44,645 bases of DNA from PVC group bacterium. GTDB lineage: Bacteria > Auribacterota > Erginobacteria > Erginobacterales > Erginobacteraceae. The stretch covers positions 1-44,645 of the forward strand of contig PWXJ01000162.1 of NCBI GenBank assembly GCA_003561965.1, in the 5' to 3' direction. The translations under genes were made by a program, and so were the position numbers. Shown here piece after piece: positions 659-44,645 of the stretch; position 1 is the stretch's first letter, and each line of letters opens with the position of its first letter. Below the pieces are notes generated by a model. It was given only the letters and a program-made list of their open reading frames with translations, was not told the DNA's origin and ran no database searches.

Positions 659-685
659 AAAGGACTTAAAGGACCTGAAGGACAC
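659..685. repeat. 9-bp tandem micro-repeat, family AAAGGACNN, copy 1 (3 units)
   Basis: AAAGGACTT AAAGGACCT GAAGGACAC; overlaps the arsM stop codon. Confidence 0.85.
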
Positions 686-1487
686 CGGGGCCGGGCCTGA
701 TCGCCTCGATCCGGGCCGCGCGGACGAACCGCTCCGCCCCACTGTCCGGGAACCAGTCCTTGATGAAGAACGCGCTTTCCTCGTGCACCCGGACGCGGAT
801 GTCGGCAAATCCGGCCGCCTTGAGCATCGCTTCGGTTTCCGGGACGGCGGCGGCTCCGGCGACGCACCCGCTATAGGCCGAGAAGTCCCGTTTTACCCGG
901 TCGGGGATGGGTGCCACCGCCACCACGTCGGAGATGGCCAGACGCCCTCCCGGGCGGAGGACCCGGAAGGCTTCCGAGTAAACCCGCCCCTTATCCGGCG
1001 AGAGGTTGATCACGCAGTTGGAGATAATCGCGTCCGCCGTTTCATCGGACACGGGAAGATGCTCGATCTCGCCGAGGCGAAATTCGACGTTTTCATAGCC
1101 GCCGGCGGCGGCGTTGGTGCGAGCCTTTTCGATCATCTCCTCCGTCATATCAACCCCGATTATCCGGCCGGTCGGACCGACCCGGCGGGCGGCGAGAAAG
1201 CAGTCGAAACCGCCGCCGCAACCAAGGTCGATCACGGTCGCGCCCGCCTTCAGTTCCGCGATTGCCTGAGGGTTGCCGCAGCCCAGCCCCAGGTCCGCCC
1301 CTGCCGGTGCCGAGGAGATTTCCTCGGGCGAGTAGCCGATCCGGGCCGAGGCGCCGGGGGCGGGACCGGGGACGGCGGACGGCTGGCAGCAACCGGTGGC
1401 GCAGCCGCAACTTCCGGCGGATTTGGCGATCGCCGCGTAGCGGCGGCGGATTTCTCGCTTGATCTTCTCGGGCGGGCGGCTTTGCAT
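666..1487 (-). CDS. arsM: Arsenite S-adenosylmethionine methyltransferase
   Basis: [22 protein letters not shown] motif, [22 protein letters not shown]-terminal CGC..CC. Start placed at ATG 1487 (MQSRPPEK); the longer ORF-track start runs through a repeat array. Confidence 0.92.
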
Positions 1488-1499
1488 AACTTTTCCGAC

Positions 1500-1539
1500 C
1501 AAGGACATAAATGACCAAAAGGACCTAAAGGACACCTGG
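1500..1539. repeat. 9-bp tandem micro-repeat, family AAAGGACNN, copy 2 (4 units)
   Basis: CAAGGACAT AAATGACCA AAAGGACCT AAAGGACAC CTGG between the J-domain gene and arsM. Confidence 0.85.
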
Positions 1540-1542
1540 CGA

Positions 1543-1971
1543 CTAACCGGGCTTTTCCGGGCTGTTTCGGGGGCAGTCGATGACCTGGGGGCGCTTTCGC
1601 CAGGCGGTACAGGTCTCCATCTCCGGGCATTTCGGGCAGCCGGTTTCGGTCATCCGCCGGTAGTGGTAGCGCATCGCGAAACGGAAGAAGGGGTGGCCGG
1701 CCGGGCCGGGGGTCGGCCGGAGCCGGTCGGCCAGGTCCTCGTTGTAATCCGGGTCGCCGAAGCGATGATAACGGCGGCGGCGGGCGGGATCGGAGAGGAC
1801 CTCGTAGGCCTCCTGTATCCGGATAAACTCCTCCGAACGGCAGCCGCCCCGGCGGTCGGGGTGGTGCTCGCGGGCCAGCTTGCGGTAGGCCCGCTTGATC
1901 TCGGCATCCGTTGACTGTCGCGAGACCCCGAGGACCCGGTAATAATCAATCCGCCGGCGAATTCTTTTCAT
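1543..1971 (-). CDS. Small J-domain (DnaJ-type) protein with a Cys-rich C-terminus
   Basis: DYYRVLGV...IKRAYRKLAREHHPDR...FIRIQEAYEVLSDPARRRRY (HPD motif); tail CPKC-x5-C-x11-C. Start at ATG 1971 or 1995. Confidence 0.85.
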   Translation of the reverse strand: MKRIRRRIDYYRVLGVSRQSTDAEIKRAYRKLAREHHPDRRGGCRSEEFIRIQEAYEVLSDPARRRRYHRFGDPDYNEDLADRLRPTPGPAGHPFFRFAMRYHYRRMTETGCPKCPEMETCTAWRKRPQVIDCPRNSPEKPG

Positions 1972-1987
1972 CGTCCGCCAACCGTAA

Positions 1988-2218
1988 TTATCCAAGCAGA
2001 GCCTTGATTTCCGCGACGGTGGGTGCCTTGCCGGCGATCTTCACCTCGCCGTCGATCGCCACCGCCGGGGTCAGCATCACCCCGTAGTCGGCGATCTCTT
2101 TCAGGTTTTTCACCTCGGCCACATCGGCTTCCTTCCCCAACTCGGCCAGGGCGGCCTTGATGTTTTCCCTGGTCTCGCGGCATTTCGGGCAGCCGGTACC
2201 CAGGACTTCAATCTTCAT
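1988..2218 (-). CDS. Small redox-active thioredoxin-like protein (MTH895/ArsE, Thioredoxin_3 type)
   Basis: MKIEVLGTGCPKC...YGVMLTPAVAIDGEVKIAGKAPT, 76 aa, GGAGGG RBS; this is the C-terminal part of ORF 1988..2623. Confidence 0.9.
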   Translation of the reverse strand: MKIEVLGTGCPKCRETRENIKAALAELGKEADVAEVKNLKEIADYGVMLTPAVAIDGEVKIAGKAPTVAEIKALLG

Positions 2219-2232
2219 TTTCCCCTCCTTGT

Positions 2233-3747
2233 TCACAAAAAACCCAACAGGAGCCCGGCTATCATACCCGAGCCGAGCAGAAACATCACCAGCCCGGTGA
2301 TGAAGTGCATCTTCCCCGCCCCCTTCTGCCGCCAGCGCTCGGCCCGGGCGGTGGTGGTGTAGCCGAAGTGGACCGCAAAGGCGAGGACGACCAGGGGGAG
2401 GACGAAGAAGAGGTTGTAGAGCAAGAGCAGGAGCACCCCCTCCCGCCGCTCGGTGGTCTGGGAGAGGAGGGTGAGGATAGCCAGGTAGGGCCCGGAGGTA
2501 CAGGGGGCGAGGAAGAGCGACTCCAGGGCCCCGATCGCGAAGGCCCCGGGGACGCTGGTCACCGAGGCGGCCAGCTTCTTCGCCCGGGGCTGCCAGCTGG
2601 CCGGAATCTCGATCGTGAACCACTTCCCGTACCAGAAGAGGTCCTTCATCTGCCAGAGCCCGATCAGGATCGCCAGGATGGAGACGACCCAGAGGAAGGT
2701 GACCCGGAACCCCCGGGTCCCCACCGTCGCCCCCAGCAGCGTGTAGACCGCGAAACCCATCAGGAAGTACATCACGTAGACCCCGGCGATAAAGGCCAGC
2801 CCGGCCTTGAGGACCTTCATCCTCTGGCCGAGGACCATCAGGGTGCCCATCAACAGGAGCATCAGGGCGAAGTCGCAGGGGTTGAGCGAGTCGAGCAGCG
2901 CCGCCCCGATCACCGCCCAGAGGGTGAGCCGCTCCCTCAGCCGGAGCCGGTCCAGGGGCGAGGAGACCCCCTCCTCGGCCGCCCGGGCGGCGTAGGCTTC
3001 AATCCGGCGGACGATCTCCGCCGGGTCGGTGAACTTTTCCGGACTCCGGCGGCCGATATACAGGGTGTCGCCGATCAGGGCGAGGTCGCCGAGGAAGAGG
3101 GCCGGGGGCTCTCCGGGGAGGCCGAGCATCCGCTGAAGCCGCCGGAACCGGCTTTCCCGGTCGGGATCGTCGAGGTCGAAGATCTCCAGGGACAGGCGGG
3201 GGTCGTCCCTGACCAGCTCCCGGGCCCGGCGCTCCAGGGCCATCCCCTCCGGGTCCCCGGGGTGGAGGAAGACCAGGATCTCCGCCGCCGCCTCCTCCAG
3301 CCGCCGGAGGGGAGAGCGGGCCTCCTCCGCGATCGCCCGGACCACCGCTTCTTCCAGGGCGGTCTCCTTCTCCCGGCCCCGGAGGACGGCCGGCTCTTCA
3401 AGCAGGCCGTAAAATACCTCCCCGACCATCGCCACCTCCCCGATAAAGATCATCGGCACCGGGCCGATCTCCGCTTCGTAGGCGGCCAGCAGCCGGGGAA
3501 AGAGTTCCCTCCCTTCCGGGGTGTGGATATCGTAGCGGATAATCTCCAGGCCGGGATAGAGGCCGCGGAGGTAGTCGAGGGTCTCGGCCGCCTCGACACA
3601 ATCCGGACAGCCCGGTTCGTAGAGGTAAACCGCCTCCGTCTCCCCGGCCGGGGAGAGGGTGGGGAGGAACAAGAGCAGGGCCAGCCCCAGGAATACCGCC
3701 CGGACGGCGCCAGTTCGAATACGGAAAATTTCCCGGCGGGTGCTCAT
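2233..3747 (-). CDS. Thioredoxin/glutaredoxin-like domains fused to a CcdA/DsbD-type transmembrane electron-transfer domain
   Basis: Signal/TM segment, YEPGCPDC, second Trx-like repeat without CxxC, then TM helices with LDSLNPC and APCTSGPY Cys pair. ATG 3747 abuts the upstream stop. Confidence 0.85.
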   Translation of the reverse strand: MSTRREIFRIRTGAVRAVFLGLALLLFLPTLSPAGETEAVYLYEPGCPDCVEAAETLDYLRGLYPGLEIIRYDIHTPEGRELFPRLLAAYEAEIGPVPMIFIGEVAMVGEVFYGLLEEPAVLRGREKETALEEAVVRAIAEEARSPLRRLEEAAAEILVFLHPGDPEGMALERRARELVRDDPRLSLEIFDLDDPDRESRFRRLQRMLGLPGEPPALFLGDLALIGDTLYIGRRSPEKFTDPAEIVRRIEAYAARAAEEGVSSPLDRLRLRERLTLWAVIGAALLDSLNPCDFALMLLLMGTLMVLGQRMKVLKAGLAFIAGVYVMYFLMGFAVYTLLGATVGTRGFRVTFLWVVSILAILIGLWQMKDLFWYGKWFTIEIPASWQPRAKKLAASVTSVPGAFAIGALESLFLAPCTSGPYLAILTLLSQTTERREGVLLLLLYNLFFVLPLVVLAFAVHFGYTTTARAERWRQKGAGKMHFITGLVMFLLGSGMIAGLLLGFL

Positions 3748-3748
3748 C

Positions 3749-4762
3749 TCATCTGCTGATGTTGGAACGGAGGGGGACGAGGATAACATTCTGCCCGGGA
3801 AGATCGGTCTCGATCGTAACCTGGCCCGAGTAATGACCGGGCGCGGCATCCGGCCGGAGCCGGACCGATATTTCGAATTCCTTCCCCGGCTCGACGGTAT
3901 TCACCTCCACCTGGAAAGCTTCGACGTCGCTCCGGACCTCCCGGATCTCTACCGGTTGCTCGGCGCGGTTGACCAGGCTGATGTACTTCTCGATCCGCCG
4001 GGACTGTTCGTTCTCATTGAAAAAGAGCATCCGGGGCTGGTGCTGAATCAACCCCTCGACCGTGGCCAGCAGCCGCCCGGTCAGGCTGGTCATCCGGGGG
4101 TGGTCGATCCGGGCGGTCAGGCCGCCCCGGTGCCGGCCGACCGGCGCCTCCGGGGAGAGCGTCACCTCGATCCGGACCGGGCCCGCGGATTCGGGCTCTT
4201 CCGGCTCGATAATCCGGGCCGAGAAGAACTCGGGTTGGGCGGAGATCTCCAGGACCCTTACCGGGTCCCCGTCGAAGACCACGCTGACCTCCCTCACCGC
4301 CGGCTGGCCCTGAACCACCCGGCCGAACTGGACGTTCCGGGGGTCGAAGGCGGCCACGGTCTTGATCGTGGTCACGATCTCCACCCGGGCGGTGGGGTTC
4401 TGCCGGTCGTTGGAATGGATAAAGACGGGCTGGGTAGTCCTTCCCCGGTAGCCGCGGGTGTTGAAGGTCGCCCGGATCTCCCCGCTCTCCCCGGGGGCGA
4501 TCGTGTCGCTGGAGAGGTTGCTGGCGGTACAGCCGCAGGTGGTCCGGACCCGGCTGATCTTCAGTTCGGCGTCCCCGATGTTGGTGAAGGTGAAGATATG
4601 GGAAATCGATTCTCCTTCCCAGGTCTCCCCGGCGTCATAGACGGCCTCCCGGAAGGAGATCACCGGACCGGCCCGGTCGACCGTTGCTTCCTCCTCCGCC
4701 CGGAGGGGGAAGGCCAAGCTGCCGAGAATAATGGTAATCAACAATAGCTTCAATCTTTTCAT
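3749..4762 (-). CDS. Exported DUF1573-domain (Ig-like) protein
   Basis: AAAGGAGG RBS, ATG 4762, signal peptide MKRLKLLLITIILGSLAFPLRA, HIFTFTNIGDAELKISRVRTTCGCT...IAPGESGEIRATFNT. Confidence 0.85.
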   Translation of the reverse strand: MKRLKLLLITIILGSLAFPLRAEEEATVDRAGPVISFREAVYDAGETWEGESISHIFTFTNIGDAELKISRVRTTCGCTASNLSSDTIAPGESGEIRATFNTRGYRGRTTQPVFIHSNDRQNPTARVEIVTTIKTVAAFDPRNVQFGRVVQGQPAVREVSVVFDGDPVRVLEISAQPEFFSARIIEPEEPESAGPVRIEVTLSPEAPVGRHRGGLTARIDHPRMTSLTGRLLATVEGLIQHQPRMLFFNENEQSRRIEKYISLVNRAEQPVEIREVRSDVEAFQVEVNTVEPGKEFEISVRLRPDAAPGHYSGQVTIETDLPGQNVILVPLRSNISR

Positions 4763-4783
4763 CAATATTTCCTCCTTTCTACC

Positions 4784-4823
4784 CAGGGACCTAAAGGACT
4801 TAAAGGACCTAACAGACGCCTGG
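4784..4823. repeat. 9-bp tandem micro-repeat, family AAAGGACNN, copy 3 (4 units)
   Basis: CAGGGACCT AAAGGACTT AAAGGACCT AACAGACGC CTGG between the permease and DUF1573 genes. Confidence 0.85.
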
Positions 4824-4830
4824 TGGTTTT

Positions 4831-6009: not shown

Positions 6010-6024
6010 AACCGGTGATGCTTT

Positions 6025-6378: not shown

Positions 6379-6395
6379 CAGCAGAAACTCACTAC

Positions 6396-6451
6396 TATAT
6401 CCATATATTTAGATATATACTAAATATTACCACCGTTCGGGGGCCTGTCAA
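6396..6451 (-). promoter_or_regulatory. Sigma70 promoter of the ars operon with a probable ArsR operator
   Basis: Minus strand TTGACA (6451-6446), 16 nt, TGn-TAATAT (6429-6424); downstream AT-rich imperfect palindrome TATATC-N10-GATATA (6396-6417). Confidence 0.7.
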
Positions 6452-14400: not shown

Positions 14401-15117
14401 GGCGGCCGCGCAGGTGGGGGCGAAGATCCAGGCCCGGAGCCGGAACCTACCGGACTCCAGGTCCCGGCGGTGCCGGAGGGCGAACGCCGCCGCCCCGGAG
14501 AGGACCAGGAGCAGGACGAGGGAGGCGGCCAGGGGGACGCGCCGGGCGGCAGCCAGTCGTCCCCGCCACTCGCCGGCCAGGATGTCGATCCCCACCGCCA
14601 GGATGACCTCGCCGGTGGCCGGGTCGAAGACCGGGGTCAGGGCGGAGACGAAGCTCCCGTATTCGTCCCGGTAGGGGCCGAAGACTTGGGAACGGCCGGT
14701 TTGGAAGACCTCCGCCAGTTCCGGGGGCGGCTGCCGGTAGACCGTCCCCGGAGGGCTGGCCATCGGGTCGTCGGGGGGATAGTCTTCGGGGCCGAAAACG
14801 AAGCGGCCGTCGAGGAGGGTCAGGCTGTAGATGCCCCGCTGTTCCCCGTTGATTCCGGCGGCGATCATCCTCTCCCGGAGATATTCAAAGGCGGGGGTGC
14901 CCCGGTCGGCTTCGGTAAAGGAAAGCTGCCTGACCAGTTCCGGGTTGAGCGAATCGGCCAGGGTCAGGACCCGGCTGAGCAGACGCTCCTCCAGCTCGGC
15001 CGCGGCCAGGGCGGCCCGGCGCTCCCCGGCCCGCCAGCCGGCCGCCAGGATCAGCCCGGCCGCCGCCAGCGCCGCCAGGCCGCCGGTCAGCCTTTTTCTG
15101 GTGATCACAACCTTCAT
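11401..15117 (-). CDS. Membrane-bound hybrid histidine kinase (Cache-like sensor regions, PAS, HK, two receiver domains)
   Basis: TM segments, FLANMSHEIRTPMNG, NLVGNAVKFT, GGTGLGL, two REC domains (LDMMMPGMDG, MDVQMPVLDG). ATG 15117 forms an ATGA overlap with the upstream stop. Confidence 0.9.
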   Translation of the reverse strand: MKVVITRKRLTGGLAALAAAGLILAAGWRAGERRAALAAAELEERLLSRVLTLADSLNPELVRQLSFTEADRGTPAFEYLRERMIAAGINGEQRGIYSLTLLDGRFVFGPEDYPPDDPMASPPGTVYRQPPPELAEVFQTGRSQVFGPYRDEYGSFVSALTPVFDPATGEVILAVGIDILAGEWRGRLAAARRVPLAASLVLLLVLSGAAAFALRHRRDLESGRFRLRAWIFAPTCAAAVLLLALFAVYQLLHRAEESRRTARRVTGQARRQWSRLLESEARVLGAVLDRVQEHPALAAPWPDREELASRAAPLLEELRRNHRVSHFYLADSDLSWHLRVCDPSCRGDRPERTILETAARTGQDAWGLEMGTLGTFTLRYARPRWADGRVSDFLKLGLEVEHLAGLFARALGAEVITLVDKEHTTRENFQDGREALGLAGSWDEFSRVAVVNMTLDRTPEGIEEIWSAGLAGGPGEGEPVGLRHEGRVFSGGMIRIPDAAGRPVGAIFVLRDVTLEAAEDETVLFLNLALAAALSGAVLSLLWVVTGRAEKQIRRAFRQVRENEVRFQTVFNQAQDAIFIETPEGRIVDVNRAGCDLLGYRRKELLKMRVSDLLPPEARSGLPPTIRPETVAPGTYIETEELAKNGRRIPIEVSNSLVEIDGEERVVAIIRDITERKRAEEVLRAKTAELEQLTRRLQAALDWANRMTKKAEEASLAKSRFLANMSHEIRTPMNGVLGMTGLLLDSPLNPEQRHYAEIIEASGEALLTLINEILDLSKIEAGRLDLDTVEFDLEEELEKFSSALAAPVGAKGLEFVCRVIPGTPTRLKGDPARLRQVLNNLVGNAVKFTDQGSVTVEVSLKRREGDLAVLGFSVADTGIGIPPEHLAGIFEPFTQADETTTRRHGGTGLGLTIARQLAGLLGGEISVESQPGRGSTFRFTARFEALDAVSSTRVPGCEALSGHRSARVLVVDDNPTNRKLVSSLLFRWGLRPGEADSGAGALEELRGAAASSDPYRAAILDMMMPGMDGGELAERIGADPAIPPLPLVLMTSLGRPGPSRGEGPGFAAVLSKPVRRADLLRVLVSALEGADPPPPAPSSVPAPEGEVPSPRRSGRILVAEDNPVNRKVVRGMLKKLGYDPRVVVDGREALAALSEEPFDLVLMDVQMPVLDGLQATEKIRDPASGVLDHRIPIVALTAHALKGDRDRCLQAGMNDYLPKPITLPALEKVLKKWLPGGG

Positions 15118-17180
15118 ATCTCCGGCGAGGGGCACTGATCCGGCTGGTCCGTATCGGGTTGTCCCGCCTCTTCCCCGGCCGGGAGGAGACGGGAGAGCAG
15201 GCCCCGGAGGCGGCCGAGGGAATAGGGCTTCTGGAGGATCCCGTCCAGGTCGCGGCCGGCGAAGCGTTCGGCCAGGTCGGCCTCGCTGTAGCCGCTGGCG
15301 ATCACCACCCGGGCCGACGGGTCGATCTTCCGGATCTCCTCCAGGGCTTCCCCGCCGTCGAGACCGGGCATCGTCAGGTCGAGCAGGACCAGGTCGATCT
15401 TCTTCCGGTCTTTCCGGAAGGTTTCAACCGCCTCCTTCCCGTCGGCGGCGGTGATGACTTCCAGCCCCAGCCGGTGGAGGACCTGGGAGCCCAGGGCCCG
15501 GAGGGTCTCCTCGTCCTCGGCCAGGAGCACCGTCCCCTTCCCCCGCCAATCCAGACCCCCGGCGACGGAGCCGCCATCGGAGGGGGCCGGCGCCGCCTTC
15601 CCGGGGTCGAGGGCAGGGAAAAGAACCCGGAAGGTCGTACCCTTTCCCGGCCTGCTTTCAATCCGGAGTCCCCCCCCGTGGCTCCGGACGATCCCCAGCA
15701 CCGCCGCCAGCCCCAGTCCCCGTCCGGTGAACTTGGTGGAGAAGAAGGGCTCGAAGAGCCGCCGGCGGACCTCTTCGTCCATCCCCGTCCCGGTATCGGC
15801 CACCTCGAAGAAGACGTAGAGCCCCGGTTCCAGGTCGTTGCCGAACTCGGTCCGTTTCAGTTCTTCTCCGTCGCAGAGCACGGCGCCGGTGGAGACGGTG
15901 ATGAAACCGCTGCGGTCCTCGAGGGCCTCGGAAGCGTTGATCAGGAGGTTCATCACCACCTGCCGGACCTGAGAGGGGTCGGCCTCGATCGGCGGGAGCC
16001 CCTCCTCGAGCTGGAGCTTGAGGACCGCCTTCTTGGAGATCGCGGCCTTCAGCAGATGGGTGATCTCCCCGACCAGGCGCTTTAAGTTAACCGGCTGGCG
16101 GACGAACGAAGACTTGCCGGTATAGGCGAACATCTGCCGGCAGAGGTCGGCGGCCTGGCGGGCGGAACCGGTGATCTGATCGAGATTGACCCGGGCCGGG
16201 GAGTAGGACTTGACCGACTCCAGGGCCAGTTCGGCGTTGCCCAGAATCACCATCAGGATGTTGTTGAAGTCGTGGGCGATCCCCCCGGCCAGGACCCCGA
16301 GGCTCTCCAGTTTCTGGGCCTGCTGGACCTGCCGTTCCAGCTCCCGCCGCTCGGCCTCCGCCTGTTTCCGGCCGGTGATGTCGATGGCCAGCTCGAAGCG
16401 GACGTCGCGGCCGTCGGGCCACCGGATCACCCGGTCGATGATCTGGTAGTCGCGGTCAAGTTTCGGATTGTGGTATTCCCAGTAATAGGGCTTTCCGTCG
16501 AGCTTCCGGATGATCTCGTTGGTGCAGAAGTCGCAGGGCTCCTCCCGCCCCTGGAGTACCCGGTAACAGGTCTTCCCGGTCAGCGATTCCCCGAAGTCGG
16601 CCTCGGTCGCCCGGTTGGCGAAGAGGATCTCGTGGGTGTCCATATCGGCCACGTAGATCGCCTGGCCGATGCTGTTGAAGATCGAGAGCAGCCGGCCGTG
16701 TTCCTCCCGGAGTGCCTCCTCCGCCCGGACCCGGGCGGTGATGTCACGGACGAACTCGACCACCCCGGTGACCTCCCCGGTGGCCGGGTCCTTCATCGGG
16801 TAGGCGAAGAGCTCCAGCCGCTCGGCCGGGGAGCCGGGGAGACCGGGGACGATATCCACCTCGGTCCGGCCGGACTGGAAACACCGCCGGACCGGGCAGA
16901 GGGAGCAGGGTCGTTTCCGGCTGTGGTAGGCTTCGTAGCACTTCTTTCCTTCCAGGGGGAGGTTGGCCCGGTACCACTCCTTCATCACCGGGTTGACGTG
17001 GCGGACGGTCAGGTCGGGGTCGAGGATCGAGATCCCGTCCTGGATGGTGTTGAGGACGTCGTCGATCAGCCGGCGCTCGCCGCCGCCGGCTTGAGCCAGT
17101 TCCCGCTTCAGGCGGGAGATCTCGCCCTGGAGTTCTTCCCGGGAGGGCGGGGAGGACTTTTTCTTTTTCGGGGCGGTCAT
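15114..17180 (-). CDS. PAS-domain hybrid histidine kinase with C-terminal receiver (CckA-like)
   Basis: Two PAS domains carrying GKKCY..PCSLCP and GKTCY..PCDFC Cys motifs; AHDFNN H-box; REC LLDLTMPGLDG. Confidence 0.9.
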   Translation of the reverse strand: MTAPKKKKSSPPSREELQGEISRLKRELAQAGGGERRLIDDVLNTIQDGISILDPDLTVRHVNPVMKEWYRANLPLEGKKCYEAYHSRKRPCSLCPVRRCFQSGRTEVDIVPGLPGSPAERLELFAYPMKDPATGEVTGVVEFVRDITARVRAEEALREEHGRLLSIFNSIGQAIYVADMDTHEILFANRATEADFGESLTGKTCYRVLQGREEPCDFCTNEIIRKLDGKPYYWEYHNPKLDRDYQIIDRVIRWPDGRDVRFELAIDITGRKQAEAERRELERQVQQAQKLESLGVLAGGIAHDFNNILMVILGNAELALESVKSYSPARVNLDQITGSARQAADLCRQMFAYTGKSSFVRQPVNLKRLVGEITHLLKAAISKKAVLKLQLEEGLPPIEADPSQVRQVVMNLLINASEALEDRSGFITVSTGAVLCDGEELKRTEFGNDLEPGLYVFFEVADTGTGMDEEVRRRLFEPFFSTKFTGRGLGLAAVLGIVRSHGGGLRIESRPGKGTTFRVLFPALDPGKAAPAPSDGGSVAGGLDWRGKGTVLLAEDEETLRALGSQVLHRLGLEVITAADGKEAVETFRKDRKKIDLVLLDLTMPGLDGGEALEEIRKIDPSARVVIASGYSEADLAERFAGRDLDGILQKPYSLGRLRGLLSRLLPAGEEAGQPDTDQPDQCPSPEI

Positions 17181-17205: not shown

Positions 17206-17241
17206 AAAGGACTTAAAAGACGAAAAGGACCTCAAGGACAC
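17206..17241. repeat. 9-bp tandem micro-repeat, family AAAGGACNN, copy 4 (4 units)
   Basis: AAAGGACTT AAAAGACGA AAAGGACCT CAAGGACAC in the leader of the kinase cluster. Confidence 0.85.
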
Positions 17242-17306: not shown

Positions 17307-17849
17307 TTAGAGGATAAAGACCGCGGCGGCGACGGTGGTGGTCCAGAGGCCGTTGCGGTCGCCCTCGGCCGACTGGCAGATATTGGTGGTGGTGATGATC
17401 TTGCCCGAGGCCCGGTAGATCTGTTTCCGCTCGTCCCAGGCGGTCTCGGGGTCGAACTCGATCCCCAATGTGGTGGCGAGCATCGTCGCCGCCAGGTCCT
17501 CGGCGTATTCGCCGGATTTCTTCGCCGTCTCCCCGTGGGCGTGGTGCTCGGAGAGATACCCGTAGCCTTTCTTCCGGGCCGGCCTGGCCACCCCGATGGC
17601 CGAGGAGACCAGGCGGTTGGGCTCGTTCGTATCGTTGCGGGCCAGCACCACGAAGACGATCTGGCCGGGCTGGAGGAGTTCTCTCCCCTCCCGGCCGGTC
17701 AGTTTCCGGCAGCCGGGGGGGAGGATGCTGGAGACCTGGACCAGGTTGCACTTCTCGATCCCCGCCTTGCGCAGGGCCATCTCGAACGAGGCCAGCCGGT
17801 CCTTGTGGACCCCGACCCCCTTGGTCAGGAAATACTGTTTCGGGATCAT
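17307..17849 (-). CDS. pdaD: Pyruvoyl-dependent arginine decarboxylase
   Basis: [13 protein letters not shown]...[27 protein letters not shown] (Ser-Ser cleavage site), [19 protein letters not shown]; ATGA-coupled to the DHS-like gene. Confidence 0.92.
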
Positions 17850-20960: not shown

Positions 20961-21007
20961 CTGTTGCCTAATGGTGGTAGGCGGATAATAATGCCGGGAG
21001 TAAGAAG

Positions 21008-21042
21008 TCAGAATCCAGAATTCAGAATCCAGAATTCAGAAG
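21008..21042. repeat. Heptamer tandem repeat (T/C)CAGAAT x5
   Basis: TCAGAAT CCAGAAT TCAGAAT CCAGAAT TCAGAAG, ending 9 nt before the hisG ATG. Confidence 0.9.
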
Positions 21043-21051: not shown

Positions 21052-21951
21052 ATGAAAACCAATAGCAGTCCGGACAACCCGACCCTGATCAGGCTGGGGC
21101 TACCCAAGGGGAGCCTGCAGGAATCAACCTTCGAACTCTTCCGGCGGGCCGGTTTCGCGATCGCGGTCGGGAGCAGGTCCTATTACCCCCGGATCGACGA
21201 CCCGGAGATCGAGGCGGTCCTGATCCGGGCCCAGGAGATCCCCCGCTACGTGGAACAAGGCGCGATCGACGCCGGTATCACCGGTTTCGACTGGCTGAAG
21301 GAGAGCGGGGCCGGGGTGGAGGAGATCGCCGACCTGGTCTACGCCAAGGCCGGTTTCCGCCCGGTCCGCTGGGTCCTGGCCGCCCCCGAGGATTCGCCCT
21401 TCCGCAAGCCCGAGGACTTCCGGGGGAAGAGGATCGCCACCGAGCTGGTCTGCGCCACCCGGGATTTCTTCTCCTCCCGGGGGATCGACTGCGAGGTGGA
21501 ATTCTCCTGGGGGGCGACCGAGGTCAAGCCCCCCCAGCTGGCCGACGGGATCGTCGAGCTGACCGAGACCGGCTCCTCGCTGCGGGCCAACAACCTCCGG
21601 ATCGTCGAGACGGTCCTGGAGAGCACCACCCGCTTCATCGCCAACACCGCGGTCTGGAAGGATCCGGCCCGTCGGCGGAAGCTGGAGAATATCGCCCTCC
21701 TCCTCCAGGGGGCGATCGAGGCCCAGGGCAAGGTCGGCCTGAAGATGAACGTCCCCCGCCGGGTCCTGGAGCAGTTGCTGGAGATCCTCCCCGCCCTCCA
21801 TTCCCCCACCCTCTCCGACCAGATCGACCGCGACTGGGTGGCGGTCGAGGTGGTGATCGAGGAGAAGCGGGTCCGGGAACTGATCCCGGTCCTGAAGGGC
21901 GCCGGGGCGGAGGGGATCATCGAATACCCGTTGAACAAGATCGTCAAGTAA
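21052..21951 (+). CDS. hisG: ATP phosphoribosyltransferase (long form)
   Basis: [52 protein letters not shown]-terminal regulatory domain. Confidence 0.95.
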
Positions 21952-24626: not shown

Positions 24627-24697
24627 TGCCCGGTGGTGTAATGGTAACACATCGGCCTTTGGAGCCGAGTTTCGAGGTTCGAGTCCTCGCCGGGCAG
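24627..24697 (+). tRNA. tRNA-Gln(TTG), CCA not encoded
   Basis: Acceptor TGCCCGG/CCGGGCA, D arm GTGT-AATGGTA-ACAC, anticodon stem TCGGC/GCCGA with loop CTTTGGA, T arm CGAGG-TTCGAGT-CCTCG; usual ispE-tRNAGln-prs position. Confidence 0.95.
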
Positions 24698-30192: not shown

Positions 30193-30636
30193 ATGAAGGT
30201 GATACTGACCAAAGACCACCCCACCCTGGGAGAAGAAGGTACGATCCTCGAAGTCGCCCCCGGCTACGGGCGGAACTTCCTCCTCCCCCGGGGGTTGGCC
30301 TACCCGGCCACCGGGCACCACATCGCCCTGATCGAGCAGGCCCGGGAGAAGAAGAAACGCCGGGAAGAAGAGCGGCTGGTCAAGGCCCGGGAGATGGCGA
30401 CCCGGATGAACGAAGCCTCCTGCACGATTACCGTCGCCGCCGGGGAAGGCGACACCCTGTACGGGTCGGTGACCGCGGCGATGATCGCCGAGGCCCTGGC
30501 CGGGGAGGGGTTCGCGGTGGATAAAGACCAGGTCGAGCTGGAAGCCCCGATCAAGAAACTGGGGATCTACACCGTCCCGGTCTCCCCGGGACCGGAGATC
30601 ACCGCCCAGGTCAAGGTCTGGGTGGTTAAGGAATAG
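30193..30636 (+). CDS. rplI: 50S ribosomal protein bL9
   Basis: MKVILT..LG..G..VAPGYGRNFLLPRGLA, LYGSVT, PIKKLG. Confidence 0.96.
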   Translation: MKVILTKDHPTLGEEGTILEVAPGYGRNFLLPRGLAYPATGHHIALIEQAREKKKRREEERLVKAREMATRMNEASCTITVAAGEGDTLYGSVTAAMIAEALAGEGFAVDKDQVELEAPIKKLGIYTVPVSPGPEITAQVKVWVVKE

Positions 30637-30675
30637 GAAGTAGGCAGTAGGCAGTGGGGAGTGGGCAGTGGGGAG
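30634..30675. repeat. Heptamer tandem repeat T(A/G)GG(C/G/A)AG x6
   Basis: TAGGAAG TAGGCAG TAGGCAG TGGGGAG TGGGCAG TGGGGAG, starting at the rplI stop codon. Confidence 0.88.
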
Positions 30676-30735
30676 CGATGATTACGAGGGCGGGGGACTG
30701 ATCAGGATAATCCGTGTAATCAGGTGACCTTAATA

Positions 30736-34463: not shown

Positions 34464-34552
34464 TTCACCGCAAAGCCGCAAAGAACGCAAAGATCCGCGA
34501 AGTTTAAATTAACTCAACTCCCTCCTGGCGTTCTTCGCGCCCTGGCGGTGAA
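34464..34552. repeat. Imperfect inverted repeat built from 9-bp CGCAAAG(A/C)(A/C) units
   Basis: Left arm TTCACCGCAAAGCCGCAAAGAACGCAAAG; right arm CCTGGCGTTCTTCGCGCCCTGGCGGTGAA; between bamA and skp. Confidence 0.8.
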
Positions 34553-34627
34553 ATTTTCCCAGGGGGGTGGACAGGCCAGGGGACCAGGAGAGGATAGGAA
34601 ACCGGGAAGTACCGGAGGAAAACCAGG

Positions 34628-36518: not shown

Positions 36519-36606
36519 TAATCGGTATCGGGATCGCTATCGGTATCGGGATCGAGTCACGACAGCCTTTCGATAGCGATCCCGATCCCGATAGCGATAG
36601 CGATTA
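36519..36606. repeat. Long inverted repeat made of ATCG(G/C)(T/G) hexamers
   Basis: TA-ATCGGT ATCGGG ATCGCT ATCGGT ATCGGG ATCGA, 14-nt loop, TCGAT AGCGAT CCCGAT CCCGAT AGCGAT AGCGAT-TA. Confidence 0.9.
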
Positions 36607-36638
36607 TCCCTGATCGGGAGCAACTATAAGGGGTAATA

Positions 36639-37664
36639 ATGGACACGATAAAAGTCGCGGTGGTCGGGGTCGGACACCTGGGGTCCCGCCACGCCCGAAT
36701 TTATTCCGAACTCGACCGGGTCGAACTGGTCGGGGTGGTGGACAGCGATCCGGACCGGGCCGGGGAGGTCGGCCGGGAATACGGCTGCCGGGCCTTCCGG
36801 CGGGTGGAGGATCTCCCCGGGGAGGTCGAGGCGGTCAGCGTGGTGGTCCCGACCGACCGCCACCACCAGGTCGCTGCCGCCCTGATGGAACGGGGCTGCC
36901 ACCTGCTGGTCGAGAAGCCGATCACCGACTCCATCCCCACCGCCCGGGAGCTGCTCCGCCAGGCGGAGAAGAACGGACTCCTCCTCCAGGTCGGCCACGT
37001 CGAACGGTTCAACCCCGGGATCCTCGCCCTGGAGAAGATTATCAAGGAACCGCGTTTCATCGAATGCCACCGCAACGCGCCCTTCCAACCCCGGGGGACC
37101 GAGGTCGGGGTGGTTCTGGACCTGATGATCCACGACCTGGACATCATCCTCCACCTGGTCGCCTCGCCGGTGGAGAGCCTGGAAGCGGTCGGGGCCACCG
37201 TCCTCTCCGGGCACGAGGATATCGCCAACGCCCGGATCAAATTCAAGAGCGGGTGCATCGCCAACATCACCACCAGCCGGATCAGCCCGGGAAAGTTGAG
37301 AAAGATCCGGGTCTTTCAGGACGACGCCTACATCTCCCTCGACTATATGGGCCGGGCGGGAAAGGTCTTCCGGAAGACCGGCGGCCGGATCGAAGCCGGC
37401 GAACTGGCGATCCGGGACGGCGAACCGCTCAAGCTCGAGCTGGAGTCCTTTCTCGAGGCGGTCCGCCTGGGAGGCAAACCCCAGGTGGCGGCCGAGGACA
37501 GCCTGGCCGCCCTGAGGGTGGCGGTCGAGGTGACCCGTGAGGTGGAGAAGTGCGAGAAAAAACTGCAAAAACTCCGGGAAAAATCCGCCGGGGAGCTGGA
37601 AGGCGGCCAGCTGGAGATTCCGGGTATCGGGAACGGGGAATGGGGAATGGGGAATGGGGAATAG
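36639..37664 (+). CDS. Gfo/Idh/MocA oxidoreductase, GnnA-like (UDP-GlcNAc 3-dehydrogenase candidate)
   Basis: VAVVGVGHLG, HLLVEKPI, QVGHVERFNP, VVLDLMIHDLD, DIANARI, SRIS; directly upstream of lpxB. Confidence 0.85.
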   Translation: MDTIKVAVVGVGHLGSRHARIYSELDRVELVGVVDSDPDRAGEVGREYGCRAFRRVEDLPGEVEAVSVVVPTDRHHQVAAALMERGCHLLVEKPITDSIPTARELLRQAEKNGLLLQVGHVERFNPGILALEKIIKEPRFIECHRNAPFQPRGTEVGVVLDLMIHDLDIILHLVASPVESLEAVGATVLSGHEDIANARIKFKSGCIANITTSRISPGKLRKIRVFQDDAYISLDYMGRAGKVFRKTGGRIEAGELAIRDGEPLKLELESFLEAVRLGGKPQVAAEDSLAALRVAVEVTREVEKCEKKLQKLREKSAGELEGGQLEIPGIGNGEWGMGNGE

Positions 37665-37669
37665 GGAAA
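37621..37669. repeat. Heptamer tandem repeat GGGGAAT (7 units, 4 perfect)
   Basis: CGGGTAT CGGGAAC GGGGAAT x4 AGGGAAA across the oxidoreductase/lpxB junction. Confidence 0.9.
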
Positions 37670-38802: not shown

Positions 38803-38803
38803 T

Positions 38804-40615: not shown

Positions 40616-40632
40616 TCCGGCCGCTCTTTCCT

Positions 40633-41304: not shown

Positions 41305-41318
41305 CCGGGAAAATCCCC

Positions 41319-41346
41319 TTGCCCGGCTCCGGTACTCTGCTATACT
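41319..41346 (+). promoter_or_regulatory. Promoter of rpsB-tsf-pyrH-frr
   Basis: TTGCCC-16 nt-TATACT with extended -10 TGc. Confidence 0.65.
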
Positions 41347-41502
41347 ACGCCCCACTCGAAATACCGGCCGGGAGCGGGGAAAGTTTCCCCGGCGCCAACT
41401 CCCCGGTCGTCATCGTAACCCCGGTAGTATCAACGTCCCCGCCGCCGAGCGGGGAGACAACATATCAGCCGGCGACCGATCCGGTTGAGCAAAGGAGGAA
41501 AG

Positions 41503-42417
41503 GTGAGTTCAGTGACCATCAAGGAACTGCTCGATGCCGGAGTTCATTTCGGCCATCAGACCAGACGCTGGAACCCGAAGATGGAGGATTTTATCTTCGA
41601 GGCCCGCAGCAAGATTCATATCATAGATGTCCGCCGGACCAGAAGGCAGCTCCTGGCCGCCCTCGACTATATCCGGGAGAAGGTGGCCGAGGGAGAGGAT
41701 GTCCTCTTCGTCGGAACCAAGAAACAGGCCCGGGAGATCCTGAAAGAGAGCGCCGAGCGGCTCCGGATGCACTACGTGACCGACCGCTGGCTGGGGGGAG
41801 CGCTGACCAACTTCCGGACCATCCGGCTCTCGATCAACCGCCTGATCGAACTGGAAGCCCTCCGGGAGGGCGACGCCCTGACCGGCCGGTCGAAGAAAGA
41901 AGTGGCCTCGCTGAGGCGGGAAGAACACAAGCTTCACCGGAACCTCGACGGCATCCGGGCGATGGAGGAGCTGCCGGGGGTGATGGTGGTCTTCGATATC
42001 GGCCGGGAACTGAACGCGGTCCGGGAGGCCCGGAAGCTGAAAATCCCGATCGTGGCCGTGGTTGACACCAACTGCGACCCGACCCTGGTCGACTTTCCCA
42101 TCCCCGGCAACGACGACGGAATCCGGGCCACCAGGCTGATGGTGGCCAAGATCGAGGAAGCGATTATGGAGGGGATCGAACTCCGCAAGCGGAGGATCGG
42201 GGAGAAGAAGGATAAAGAAAAGAAAGATAAAGAGAAGAAGGATACAGAGAGAAAGGATAAAGAAAAGAAAGATACAGAGAAAAAGGCTAAAGAGAAGGAA
42301 GACAAAGAGGTGGAGGGGGAAGCGGAGAAAAAACCCGCCGCCCGGAAGCGAAAAATCTCCGAAGCCGCCGCGGAAAAAACTGAAATCAGTGCCGGAAGCG
42401 AGGAGTCGAAAGCGTAA
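41503..42417 (+). CDS. rpsB: 30S ribosomal protein uS2
   Basis: ELLDAGVHFGHQTRRWNPKM, LFVGTKKQA, RWLGGALTN, VDTNCDP, PGNDD; GTG start after AGGAGG. Confidence 0.96.
   Translation: MSSVTIKELLDAGVHFGHQTRRWNPKMEDFIFEARSKIHIIDVRRTRRQLLAALDYIREKVAEGEDVLFVGTKKQAREILKESAERLRMHYVTDRWLGGALTNFRTIRLSINRLIELEALREGDALTGRSKKEVASLRREEHKLHRNLDGIRAMEELPGVMVVFDIGRELNAVREARKLKIPIVAVVDTNCDPTLVDFPIPGNDDGIRATRLMVAKIEEAIMEGIELRKRRIGEKKDKEKKDKEKKDTERKDKEKKDTEKKAKEKEDKEVEGEAEKKPAARKRKISEAAAEKTEISAGSEESKA
42205..42309 (+). repeat. 15-bp coding tandem repeat (KKDKE-like x7) in the uS2 tail
   Basis: AAGAAGGATAAAGAA AAGAAAGATAAAGAG AAGAAGGATACAGAG AGAAAGGATAAAGAA ... Confidence 0.85.
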
Positions 42418-43227
42418 ATGAATATCAGTTCACGACAGGTAAAGGAATTGAGAGATCGGACCGGGGCCGGGATCCTGGCCTGCAAGAAAGCCCTCCAGCA
42501 GACCGGGGGCGACCTGGAAAAGGCGATTGACATCCTCCGGGCCGAGGGGGCGGCCAGGGCCGCCAAACGGGAAAGCCGGGAAGCCCGGGAAGGGCTGATC
42601 CGGCTCCGGCAGGGCGAGGGCGGCCGCCGGGCCGCCCTGCTCGAGCTGAACTGCGAGACCGACTTCGTCGCCCGGACCGATGACTTCGCCCGCCTGGCCG
42701 ACGACCTGACCGACCTCCTCCTGGCCGGGGGCGAAGAAGCCCTCCAGGGGAAAGAACCCCAATCCCGGATCTCCGAAATGGCGGCGACGATCGGTGAGAA
42801 GATCACCCTGGGCCGGGCCGTGCGCTGGGAGAAGGACGGCCGGATCGGCGCTTACCTTCACCACAACGGGAGGGCGGCCGCCCTGGTCGAACTCTCCGAG
42901 GACCTCCCCGAGGCGGCGGCGGAACTGGCGATGCAGGTGGCGGCCACCAATCCCCCGTTCCTCTCCGAGGACGATGTCCCCCCGGAAGAGAAGGAGCGGG
43001 AGTGGGAGATCTTCCGCCAGCAGATCCAGGACAAGCCGGAAGCCATCCAGGAGAAGATCATCACCGGCAAGTGGCGCAAGCGGCTGACCGAACTGACCCT
43101 GGTCAATTCCCCCTTTCTCCGCGACGACAAGATCAGCGTCGCCCGCTACCTCGAACAGCAGCAGTCCCCTTCCGGAAAGCCGGTCGAGATCAGGGATTTC
43201 GTTCTCTTCCGCCTGGGGGAAGCGTAA
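42418..43227 (+). CDS. tsf: Elongation factor Ts
   Basis: VKELRDRTGAGILACKKAL, ELNCETDFVA, AMQVAATNP, KIITGK. Confidence 0.96.
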   Translation: MNISSRQVKELRDRTGAGILACKKALQQTGGDLEKAIDILRAEGAARAAKRESREAREGLIRLRQGEGGRRAALLELNCETDFVARTDDFARLADDLTDLLLAGGEEALQGKEPQSRISEMAATIGEKITLGRAVRWEKDGRIGAYLHHNGRAAALVELSEDLPEAAAELAMQVAATNPPFLSEDDVPPEEKEREWEIFRQQIQDKPEAIQEKIITGKWRKRLTELTLVNSPFLRDDKISVARYLEQQQSPSGKPVEIRDFVLFRLGEA

Positions 43228-43234
43228 TTCATTC

Positions 43235-43258
43235 ACTCGTACACGTTCTTGTACTCGT
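43235..43258. repeat. Hexamer micro-repeat ACTCGT family, copy 1
   Basis: ACTCGT ACACGT TCTTGT ACTCGT just after the tsf stop. Confidence 0.7.
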
Positions 43259-43299
43259 TAGAATATCAGCGGTGAAATAAGCATCACCGGGAGAAGACG

Positions 43300-44019
43300 A
43301 TGACCGACCGCCGGACGGGCTGCGACCGGGTGATCCTGAAGATCAGCGGGGAGAGCCTGGCCGGGGAGGAGGGCCAGCCGTTCGACCCCCGGGCCCTCGA
43401 CCAACTGATCGACCGGATCCGGGAAGGGCGACAGAGCGGCGCCGGACTGGGGATCGTCTGCGGCGGGGGTAACATCATCCGGGGACGGCTGGCCGGCTCC
43501 GGGCTGCTCGAGCGGACCACCGCTGACGGGATGGGGATGCTGGCCACGGTGATCAACAGCCTGGCCATCCGGGACGGCCTCGAACGGTCCGGGATCCCGG
43601 CCCGGCTCTTCTCCTCGGTTCCGGCCGGAGTCCTGGCCGAACCTTATTCCCCCCGCTCCGCCCGGGCCGCCCTGGACCGGGGCGAGGTGGCGGTCCTCTC
43701 CGGGGGGACCGGAAACCCTTATGTCTCGACCGACACCGCGGCGGTGCTCCGGGCCTGCGATCTCGGGGCCGGGGCGGTCCTGAAGGCGACCACCGTCGAC
43801 GGGATCTACAGCGCCGACCCGAAGACCGACCCCTCCGCCCGGCGGCTCGACCGGGTCTCATATGCCCGGGCCCTGGCCGAGGATTTAAGGATTATGGACG
43901 GCCCGGCGATCGCCCTGGCCCGGGAGAACCGGATCGCGGTGATCGTCTTCGATTTCCGGGAGAAAGACGCCGTCCGGCGGGCGGTCGGGGGAGAGCCGGT
44001 CGGGACCATCCTCAACTGA
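43300..44019 (+). CDS. pyrH: UMP kinase
   Basis: ILKISGESL, GGGNIIRG, DGMGMLAT, GGTGNPY..TDTAA, VDGIYSADP, LRIMD. Confidence 0.95.
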   Translation: MTDRRTGCDRVILKISGESLAGEEGQPFDPRALDQLIDRIREGRQSGAGLGIVCGGGNIIRGRLAGSGLLERTTADGMGMLATVINSLAIRDGLERSGIPARLFSSVPAGVLAEPYSPRSARAALDRGEVAVLSGGTGNPYVSTDTAAVLRACDLGAGAVLKATTVDGIYSADPKTDPSARRLDRVSYARALAEDLRIMDGPAIALARENRIAVIVFDFREKDAVRRAVGGEPVGTILN

Positions 44020-44040
44020 ACCCCAGAGGAGGGAAGCACT

Positions 44041-44601
44041 ATGAAACTGGAGAGCATCCTCGAAGAGGCGGAACTGAAGATGATGAAATCGGTCGAGGTG
44101 GTCAAGAGCGAGTTCTCCTCGATCCGGACCGGGAAGGCCTCCCCGGCCCTGGTCGAGAACCTCCTGGTCGATTACTACGGCTCCAGGACCCGGCTGCGGG
44201 ACCTGGCCGGGATCTCCACCCCGGAGGCCCGGCTCCTGGTCGTCCAGCCCTGGGACCCCGGGGCGCTGGAGGCGGTGGCCAAGGCAATCCAGTCGGCCAA
44301 CATCGGGCTCAACCCGATGAACGACGGCAAGATCATCCGGATCCCGATCCCGGAGATGAGCGAGGAACGGCGGCAGGATATGGTCCGGGTGATCAAGACC
44401 ATCAGCGAGGAAGGCCGGGTCTCGATCCGGAACATCCGCCGGGAGGCCAACAACGAACTGGAGACCATCTTCAAGGCCGGCTCGCTCCCCGAGGACGACA
44501 AGTTCCGGGGGTTGAAGGAAGTCCAGGAGAAGACCGATGGGTACATCGAGGAGATCGACAATCTCCTCAAGGAGAAGGAAGAGGAACTGCTGCGGATATA
44601 A
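44041..44601 (+). CDS. frr: Ribosome recycling factor
   Basis: IRTGKASP, VDYYG, VQPWD, GLNPMNDG..IRIPIP..SEERR, IRNIRR. Confidence 0.96.
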   Translation: MKLESILEEAELKMMKSVEVVKSEFSSIRTGKASPALVENLLVDYYGSRTRLRDLAGISTPEARLLVVQPWDPGALEAVAKAIQSANIGLNPMNDGKIIRIPIPEMSEERRQDMVRVIKTISEEGRVSIRNIRREANNELETIFKAGSLPEDDKFRGLKEVQEKTDGYIEEIDNLLKEKEEELLRI

Positions 44602-44625
44602 ATCCACTTCCAACCCCTGATCCAT

Positions 44626-44645
44626 ATTCGTACTCGTACTCGTAC
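44626..44645. repeat. Hexamer micro-repeat ACTCGT family, copy 2 (cut by the window edge)
   Basis: ATTCGT ACTCGT ACTCGT AC after the frr stop. Confidence 0.75.

Follow-up and report, generated by a model that had tools for sequence, protein, structure and literature searches.

Tandem heptamer arrays of cyanobacteria and Xanthomonas have been known since about 1990, when Mazel et al. are said to have described the short tandemly repeated repetitive (STRR) sequences of cyanobacteria, which are tandem heptamers. The arrays considered here lie in a 44,645-bp stretch of bacterial DNA, referred to as the window, which is the entire contig C179 (GenBank PWXJ01000162.1) of a 2.32-Mb, 319-contig metagenome-assembled genome (MAG; GCA_003561965.1, here G000) with 64% GC and a completeness of 76%. 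An earlier note on this DNA, made from its sequence alone, listed 11 short arrays at gene junctions and took them for empty sites or scars of a system that inserts and excises small genes, with each repeat family acting as an address. All 11 arrays exist, the one at 17206 being degenerate and the one at 43235 weak. The reading that we favor, with moderate confidence, is that they are the terminal arms, or remnants of the arms, of small palindromic cassettes, a frequent kind of element in this Omnitrophota family. Omnitrophota is the phylum to which we take G000 and its relatives to belong, on the basis of the closest named DnaB relatives (Candidatus Euphemobacter, Candidatus Erginobacter and a "PVC group bacterium"); the sampled relatives are all placed in a single phylum by the genome-tool taxonomy. 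Two protein families encoded in such cassettes, TIGR02436/PF05635 and TIGR04256/PF13366, are very large families of small proteins for which we know of no role.

Among the described systems closest to these cassettes are the 23S rRNA intervening sequences (IVSs). The IVS of Coxiella has a 28-bp terminal stem that is cut by RNase III, an open reading frame (ORF) for the S23p protein, and two to three tandem heptamers before that ORF (Warrier et al. 2016, PMC4990558). As far as the description in that paper extends, the IVSs of Coxiella, Leptospira and others resemble the elements found here in being small selfish inserts with terminal inverted repeats and a long stem around a PF05635/TIGR02436 ORF, in having variable tandem heptamers just before the ORF, and in residing within a transcribed, essential unit (PMC4990558). 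They differ in that they are inserted in rRNA helices, whereas all 11 loci of the window lie between protein-coding genes. In the present elements, moreover, the tandem array makes up the entire arm, most copies take the form of a single arm or a hairpin with no gene, and the window is without the ORF. The long stem is found at two of the 11 window loci (34464 and 36519) and in 14 of 17 four-helix-bundle cassettes of relatives, while the S23p ORF in the loop is absent from the window and present in the relatives' cassettes.

A second comparison is provided by the heptamer simple sequence repeats of Xanthomonas and Nostoc, with units such as GGGAATC and GGGGA[CT]T, some of which occur as inverted pairs and which differ between close relatives in both length and sequence (Rehm et al. 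2015, PMC4692102). In those parts of the paper that treat their origin and function, no associated gene and no link to mobile elements were found, and their role was left open (PMC4692102). The arrays described here differ in that they bracket four-helix-bundle genes in sister genomes, occur in the phylum Omnitrophota, and include units of 6, 8, 9 and 10 nt as well. The data join heptamer arrays of hitherto unsettled origin with two protein families, in that the arrays look like the arms of cassettes and their type follows the clade of the cargo.

The repetitive extragenic palindromic (REP) elements, and the hairpin-forming REP doublets called REPINs, are reportedly accompanied by a REP-associated tyrosine transposase (RAYT), according to work by Bertels and Rainey from 2011. 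As in the present case, many short, gene-less intergenic palindromes exist alongside few gene-carrying copies, and the gene-less ones look non-autonomous. In contrast to REPs, the cargo here is not a Y1 (IS200-like) transposase, and the arm unit differs from cassette to cassette, with no single conserved REP. Matches to the Y1 family PF01797 occur in G000 at C79:236-571 and on C56, and none is present in the window. The first of these, an IS200/RAYT-like gene (104 bits), adjoins palindromic repeats of ~90 bp (C79:1000-1400) that are unrelated to the arrays, and the two together may be a REP/RAYT-type pair. A RAYT link for the arrays was rejected, since the Y1 transposase adjoins these other repeats.

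Arms built of CGCAAAG boxes are the inverted ends of a cassette for the GxxExxY protein (TIGR04256). In G000, a GxxExxY gene (C88:6768-7115) lies between inverted arms of four CGCAAAG boxes, with the cassette continued on contig C234. Its product, a PD-(D/E)XK protein and no known transposase, matches TIGR04256 with 154 bits and PF13366 with 151 bits, and the same junction is also filled in G001 and G003. Inverted arms that exceed the best of 20 shuffles by >10 score points are present at 49 of 80 GxxExxY loci from many phyla, and the arms of those 49 consist nearly always of C[AG]C[AG][AG]AG boxes. The features by which this cassette is recognized (three to four phased boxes and a CACC/AACC ... 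GGTG/GGTT clamp) have no published definition and are given as measured on the 80 loci. The C88 gene is an example of the low-GC cargo that is missed by our own codon-usage gene caller (2177 genes in G000, 88% coding, with names assigned by Pfam); the gaps between genes were therefore additionally scanned for any ORF, and nothing further was found in G000 among what was tested.

CGCAAAG arms are of fixed make, with three to four phased boxes and a CACC clamp, and their inverted pairs enclose 88-835 bp; these arrays are not microsatellites. G000 possesses 42 CGCAAAG box clusters, which yield 13 inverted pairs and further single and tandem arms. Many of the pairs enclose a homologous core of ~95 bp, and the copies comprise ~20 gene-less elements of 160-300 bp and one longer, gene-carrying element, with terminal inverted repeats of ~45-50 bp. 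In their terminal inverted repeats, their gene-less copies with a shared core and their single gene-carrying copy, these elements are like miniature inverted-repeat transposable elements (MITEs). Unlike MITEs, they have no transposase family, and the phased boxes that make up their inverted repeats show conservation across phyla. As a separate observation, two small neighboring genes (72 and 98 aa) at C288:7284-8186 (L085) have a complete CGCAAAG element without a gene on either side, the two elements being inverted relative to each other; the first gene is a match to Unstab_antitox (43 bits) and the second weakly to ParE (18 bits, below the cut-off).

Genes for the four-helix-bundle protein (TIGR02436) are enclosed in a comparable way. 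In relatives of the same genus and family, the inverted arrays around 14 of the 17 genes score above 50 shuffles, the units of the arms include GGGGAAT, CAGAATT, CAGTAAT/CAGTAAG and AAGTTCA, and the left arm begins at the stop codon of the host gene. For instance, the full cassette L168 of G001, when folded as RNA, is predicted to pair its arms into a long stem around the ORF (-182 kcal/mol, z -4.6). A longer form is found in G003, where a gene of 193 aa lies between GTCCTT x3 and AAAGGAC x4, with an outer partner arm on each; its product matches TIGR04258 with 70.6 bits and TIGR02436 with 30.4 bits. Gene-less hairpins of the GTCCTT family are present in G000 (C260), and an inverted pair of GTCCTT pattern matches in G004 (C13) suggests a gene-less hairpin there too. 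The statement of the earlier note that similar arrays border small genes of the TIGR04256 and TIGR02436 families within housekeeping operons is therefore borne out, both by the C88 gene and by the 49 GxxExxY loci and 14 four-helix genes just described. Across a panel of 31 genomes (G000-G030), of which G000-G013, with completeness of 76-97%, represent the order of the window and G014-G030 other Omnitrophota, TIGR02436 is found in 23 and TIGR04256 in 22, in multiple copies in most relatives. Both families occur in 21 genomes, neither in seven and one alone in three, the genomes being kin and thus not independent.

The type of arm follows the clade of the cargo. Six four-helix proteins that share 60-98% identity all have C[AG]GT[AG]A[GT] arms, although they occupy three junctions and two of them are paralogues in one genome. 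For four-helix proteins with other arms, identity to proteins whose arm unit differs does not exceed 56%, in what is a small sample of kin genomes. Since one cargo clade keeps its arm type at three junctions, the arms appear to be tied to the cargo rather than to the site, and this comparison of sequences favors arms that are part of the cassette, or a cognate site of its protein, over a site-specific address.

As pieced together from these copies, a complete cassette begins right at the stop codon of the host gene with a left arm (3-10 tandem units, each 6-10 nt long), followed by a short spacer that includes a ribosome-binding site (RBS), a single small gene as cargo, and a right arm that repeats the left one in reverse complement. 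Heptamer arms carry the four-helix-bundle "23S rRNA IVS protein" (TIGR02436), GTCCTT arms its longer TIGR04258 form, and phased C[AG]C[AG][AG]AG boxes the PD-(D/E)XK GxxExxY protein (TIGR04256). Solo left arms and gene-less hairpins would represent decay products of full cassettes, the number of units would change by slippage, and selection on the stem, either in RNA or in single-stranded DNA, would keep the arms complementary. The left arm is probably kept because it often holds the stop codon of the host gene. In the window, all cargo would be gone or would never have been present, so that two gene-less hairpins (34464 and 36519) and nine single arms in left-arm orientation are what can be seen there.

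Arrays of this kind are numerous throughout G000. In total, 514 arrays of period 5-12 and at least three copies were catalogued. Of these, 286 have GC-rich units and are coding, with a mean overlap with coding sequence of 0.89, while the 228 with low-GC units (unit GC of at most 0.6) lie nearly all between genes, with a mean overlap of 0.19, and are located no more than 30 bp from a gene boundary in 63% of cases. Shuffling in 100-bp blocks gave 2, 4 and 7 low-GC-unit arrays in three shuffles of the genome, and 0-3 in 20 shuffles of the window, where eight are observed; chance is therefore excluded. A subset of 213 special arrays, defined by an overlap with coding sequence of <0.6 and a unit GC of at most 0.72, fills 162 of the 1312 gaps. 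They are present at 123 of 1504 co-directional, 18 of 174 convergent and 10 of 183 divergent junctions, which corresponds to 0.80, 0.91 and 0.22 arrays per kb of gap, respectively. Among the 155 arrays in co-directional gaps, 102 are nearer to the upstream stop than to the next start, 50 abut (within 3 bp) or overlap that stop, and 10 abut the downstream start. Sense orientation is seen for each of the 12 GTCCTT arrays, and for 62 heptamer arrays versus 25 in antisense (59 versus 23 for solo ones; binomial p ~9e-5). In orientation and position, solo arrays match the left arms of cassettes. The placement at gene boundaries and the strand bias for which the earlier note had proposed a check are thus both present genome-wide.

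These placement rules, stop-proximal and sense-biased in G000, are those published for the GGGAATC and GGGGA[CT]T repeats, which are over-represented between aligned ORFs and under-represented between divergent ones (PMC4692102, in its account of repeat distribution). The published repeats have 7-nt units, 2 to >20 copies and a dispersed distribution, and in G000 128 of the 213 special arrays are of period 7, with 3-17 copies, including those of the window at 21003, 30630 and 37621. The published unit is G-rich and capable of forming a G-quadruplex (G4); here, a G4 motif on either strand is present in 33 of the 213 arrays and, by eye, at 37621 and 30630 and in none of the other arrays of the window. 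Each repeat family of the window is found again on other contigs of G000. The claim of the earlier note that the families are unrelated does not fully stand, as the heptamers form one graded series, ~[AG][AG][GT][CG]A[AG]T, in which types often shift within a single array; consensus positions 5-7 are partly forced, since the phase of the heptamers was fitted to ....A[AG]T. Ten genes of G000 have arrays within 80 bp on both sides; they are of ordinary size (median 300 versus 278 aa), and nine of them have different families on their two sides. The earlier note had suggested listing genes bracketed by two arrays of one family, and the 62-aa ORF C187:1013-1201, between inverted GGGGAAT arrays, is of this sort.

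The distribution just described would also be expected if the arrays were host cis-elements selected for themselves, acting between cistrons as signals in RNA or DNA (for instance as G-quadruplexes, blocks to 3' exonucleases, elements for processing or spacing, or sites of protein binding), which the cassettes merely share or exploit. This explanation, which is compatible with the cassette model and does not exclude it, seems rather unlikely to us. It accounts for the densities in the three classes of gap and for the strong strand bias, and it would explain why the GTCCTT array behind the permease gene persists in G001 and, to some extent, in G008, and why ACTCGT arrays are kept at two junctions genus-wide. 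The position rule, however, follows equally from where inserts are tolerated, and array families are replaced at one junction within the genus, while order-level relatives have compact, array-free junctions. In addition, the G4 motif is confined to the 33 arrays mentioned, solo arrays fold no better than shuffles (z +0.2 to +1.6), and no T-run follows the hairpins, which sit in lipid-A and ribosomal operons.

Several specific functions were considered and set aside. G-quadruplex formation was rejected as a general explanation on account of its low frequency, and intrinsic termination because the hairpins at 34464 and 36519 are without a T-run and lie inside essential operons. RBS masking by the pyrimidine-rich GTCCTT arrays was likewise rejected, as GGAGG stays unpaired in the structures predicted for 4740-4830(-) and 1470-1542(-), which are also less stable than 192 and 197 of 200 shuffles, respectively. 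No known RNA family was found at the arrays by Rfam, for which a single tRNA is the sole match in the window.

Filled and empty states can be compared at orthologous junctions, which were identified from their flanking genes with tblastx. Relatives have a cassette at four such junctions, all of which are empty in G000. Of the empty sites, C279:10361-10452 has a GTCCTT-like array, C314:7333-7356 about one unit per arm, and C243 near 240-255 two CAGTAAT units, while C157:4445-4465 has no units. At C314, compared with the filled L168 of G001, the AAGTTCA unit overlaps the last codons of the upstream gene, which are near-identical in both genomes. It is possible to line up filled, gene-less and single-arm states at such junctions.

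At the junctions of the window itself, synteny is conserved in ten relatives and the inserts differ, so that arrays turn over rapidly between species. For example, the rplI-dnaB junction has TAGGCAG in G000, CAGTAAG in G003 and AAGTTCA in G001, and no array in two order-level relatives; in general, the order-level relatives have compact junctions without an array. Between the oxidoreductase gene and lpxB, only the left GGGGAAT arm is present in G000, and array hairpins with an inverted partner are present in all four congeners. At the fabZ-oxidoreductase junction, G000 has a hexamer hairpin, and G003 and G004 have elements built of CACAGAG boxes. The tsf-pyrH junction has a full hairpin of ACTCGT/ACGAGT arrays in G001 and a solo array in G003, and behind frr, hexamer arrays from the family of TCGTAC occur in both of these genomes; ACTCGT-type arrays are thus kept genus-wide at both places. 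The oxidoreductase gene runs into a GGGGAAT-type array in G000 and its four congeners (L064-L068), so that the array supplies the stop codon and the final few residues, both of which vary between species. Arrays therefore change the C-termini and stop codons of housekeeping genes, and they also break short-read assemblies. In public reads (four runs of Logan contigs), most contigs stop at arrays, and a few read joints with sides of 21-34 nt occur at 30633/30793 and 36542/36577.

In the original proposal of the earlier note, a repeat family is a pre-existing address at a junction, small genes are inserted there and excised again, and the arrays of the window are empty docking sites. Filled and empty forms of the same junction among relatives are what this proposal predicts, and the empty sites C314 and C243 do keep one to two units of the family seen in the arms of the filled relatives. 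At one junction (L166, L177 and L178), three genera have a four-helix cassette and the G-rich arms are related, which also agrees with it. We nevertheless regard an address as unlikely. The arms are inverted, like the ends of an element, and not direct, like a split target; one arm type stays with one cargo clade at three junctions, two of the proteins being paralogues from a single genome; and different families occupy one junction in sister species. Furthermore, no recombinase is linked to arrays, the sole Y1 transposase gene being beside other palindromes and the DDE ORF of the window in a separate low-GC island. Of the two terms used in the earlier note, "scars" fits the data better, and "addresses" is not supported. 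Finally, an origin of the arrays as unrelated replication-slippage microsatellites, or as assembly artefacts of a fragmented MAG, is very improbable, for although the number of units varies from 3 to 17 and short public contigs stop at arrays, the arrays number 228 versus 2-7 in shuffles, the same units recur on dozens of contigs in fixed orientation, the four-box arms are fixed and have conserved clamps, and the same design appears in the independent assemblies of relatives.

A number of observations weigh against the derivation of the window arrays from cassettes. One concerns filled alleles, which exist at the four junctions elsewhere. For the window's own junctions, a cargo gene was found at 0 of the 93 loci examined (10 syntenic relatives, 80 oxidoreductase loci and 3 dnaB loci), and the descent of the 11 sites from a filled cassette is accordingly inferred and not seen. 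The search with the oxidoreductase protein led mostly to distant phyla, with no cargo adjoining. For the hexamer families ATCGGN and ACTCGT, no link to cargo was found. Cargo is also scarce in G000, where one GxxExxY gene and one truncated four-helix gene compare with 213 arrays in a 76% complete assembly. The latter gene, the sole TIGR02436 match of the genome (none being in the window), is a truncated 61-aa ORF on C29 with a HigB-like gene next to it and without flanking arrays. Moreover, an exact inverted 12-mer partner within 250 bp exists for 30 of the 213 arrays and is lacking for 183, and since solo arrays far outnumber paired ones, arrays may also arise or spread without cassettes. The empty sites with one to two units (C314 and C243) could be footprints of a lost cassette or seeds that preceded its insertion. 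As for array density, four arrays were found in 106.8 kb of six cargo-free genomes and 86 in 312.8 kb of 22 cargo-bearing ones, a comparison that is confounded by kinship and GC and therefore lends weak support; in G009, G010, G014 and G024, in which both cargo families are present, no array was found in the 10-17 kb sampled.

The excision step of the known rRNA IVSs is a further point of this kind. The RNase III gene rnc (TIGR02191) was not found in any of the 14 genomes of this order (G000-G013), and it is present in 15 of the 17 other Omnitrophota (G014-G030). PF14622 and PF00636 likewise gave no match in G000-G003 and G008. The order may have lost rnc as a whole lineage. It is doubtful that excision by RNase III takes place in these bacteria, and the step probably does not apply; RNase III was accordingly rejected as the processing enzyme of the arrays.

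More tentatively, array-armed cassettes could be widespread and undescribed self-propagating elements whose cargo proteins recognize their own arm units. Heptamer and 9-mer arrays would be recognized by Avd-like four-helix bundles, and CRCRRAG boxes by GxxExxY PD-(D/E)XK proteins. The heptamers of cyanobacteria and Xanthomonas would then be arms and relics of such elements, and relics would occupy ~1/12 of the junctions in this RNase III-less order. Our literature searches, supplements aside, found no paper that links such arrays to both gene families. An old descriptive puzzle is thereby turned into questions that can be tested, namely the binding of arm units by the proteins, the complementarity of the arms, and the copying of cassettes.

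The 11 arrays of the window all lie at junctions of two same-strand genes, according to our own gene calls and Pfam, which also confirmed the gene names that had been given for rplI-dnaB, bamA-skp, fabZ-oxidoreductase-lpxB and tsf-pyrH (as L9-DnaB, BamA-OmpH/Skp, LpxC-FabZ-GFO/IDH/MocA oxidoreductase-LpxB and EF-Ts-PyrH-RRF). Tandem Repeats Finder (TRF; score of at least 30) picks up nine of the arrays, at 659-683, 1501-1533, 4787-4812, 21003-21041, 30630-30675, 34467-34502, 36521-36554 with 36571-36604, 37622-37668 and 44628-44645. Three arrays include or touch a stop codon (666-668, 30634-30636 and the stop of gene 36639-37664). As the earlier note had it, no cargo gene is present in the window.

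The two hairpins lie on the plus strand. The first, at 34464..34565 between bamA and skp, is a collapsed, gene-less element of the GxxExxY type. It has a CACC clamp and four C[AG]C[AG][AG]AG boxes (34469-34502), after which come ~25 nt of loop and an inverted, degenerate arm that ends in GGTGAA, and thereby shows the arm features of the cassette; no GxxExxY/PDDEXK_3 gene is present between its arms, which have just those ~25 nt between them. Its predicted folding energy is -34.3 kcal/mol (z -2.1), and it can be aligned to one copy on C205 and one on C105. The second, at 36519..36604 between fabZ and the GFO/IDH/MocA oxidoreductase gene, is a gene-less array hairpin composed of ATCGGN x5.7 and its complement x5.7 around a 16-nt loop, with a predicted energy of -54.2 kcal/mol (z -4.3).

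Four solo arms of the GTCCTT type lie on the minus strand. The arm at 659..683 has three phased GTCCTT boxes with a 9-bp period (AAGGAC on the plus strand), is upstream of an SBF-family gene (2-637, minus strand), and holds the stop codon (666-668) of a methyltransferase gene (666-1487, minus strand). The arm at 1500..1545 has four GTCCTT-type boxes (1501-1533) and a CCTGGCGACT-like stub (1535-1544), which also comes after the AAAGGAC arm in complete hairpins of the GTCCTT family. At 4784..4826, three GTCCTT boxes and a GCCTGGTG stub are found 22 nt upstream of the GGAGG of a DUF1573 gene (3749-4762, minus strand); it is at this locus that the GTCCTT-family array behind the orthologous permease gene is retained in G001 and, in part, in G008. 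The arrays at 1500 and 4784 both retain the first loop bases of the gene-less GTCCTT hairpin. The fourth arm, at 17206..17241, has four degenerate GTCCTT boxes, was recognized by motif clustering as TRF gives it no score, and is located between an arginine decarboxylase gene (17307-17849, minus strand) and a hybrid histidine kinase gene (15114-17180, minus strand).

The remaining five arrays are on the plus strand. A solo heptamer array of CAGAAT[CT] x ~5 lies at 21003..21041, upstream of hisG (21052-21951), and its unit is that of both arms of the four-helix-bundle cassette L167 in G001. The rplI-dnaB junction has a solo heptamer array of TAGGCAG/TGGG[CG]AG x ~6 at 30630..30675, the first unit of which holds the rplI stop codon (30634-30636); dnaB starts at 30736. 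At the oxidoreductase-lpxB junction, a solo array of GGGGAAT x ~6 (37621..37668) encodes the last residues and the stop codon of the oxidoreductase gene (36639-37664), with the lpxB start following at 37672. The tsf-pyrH junction has a decayed ACTCGT hexamer array at 43235..43258, a weak case with two exact units and decayed units between them, and TCGTAC x3 behind frr (44626..44645) is truncated by the end of the contig.

A few other features of the window may be mentioned. Between the rplI array and dnaB, at 30676-30735, there is a run of AATC-containing words of 8-10 nt, GATAATCC GTGTAATC AGGTG, which is retained in three relatives (L001, L003 and L004, around 2750-3000). Upstream of dnaB, the relatives have a G-rich module (GATTCGCGAAGATTAGTGG ... 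GAGG.GGGGG) that is repeated one to two times and that also comes after arrays on other contigs of G000. The claim that the window has no recombinase is nearly true, the exception being a 444-aa ORF at 25042-26376 (plus strand) with weak matches to DDE transposase and DUF772. This ORF is IS-like (insertion sequence-like), has no visible tie to the arrays, and is part of a 54% GC island that adjoins a tRNA gene (24627-24697). Lastly, a 15-nt repeat with 7.2 copies (or a 45-nt repeat with 2.4) is located at 42202-42309, in the 3' part of the ORF at 41512-42417 upstream of tsf, which is taken to be rpsB from its position alone. By eye, the repeat codes for a tail rich in lysine, glutamate and aspartate.

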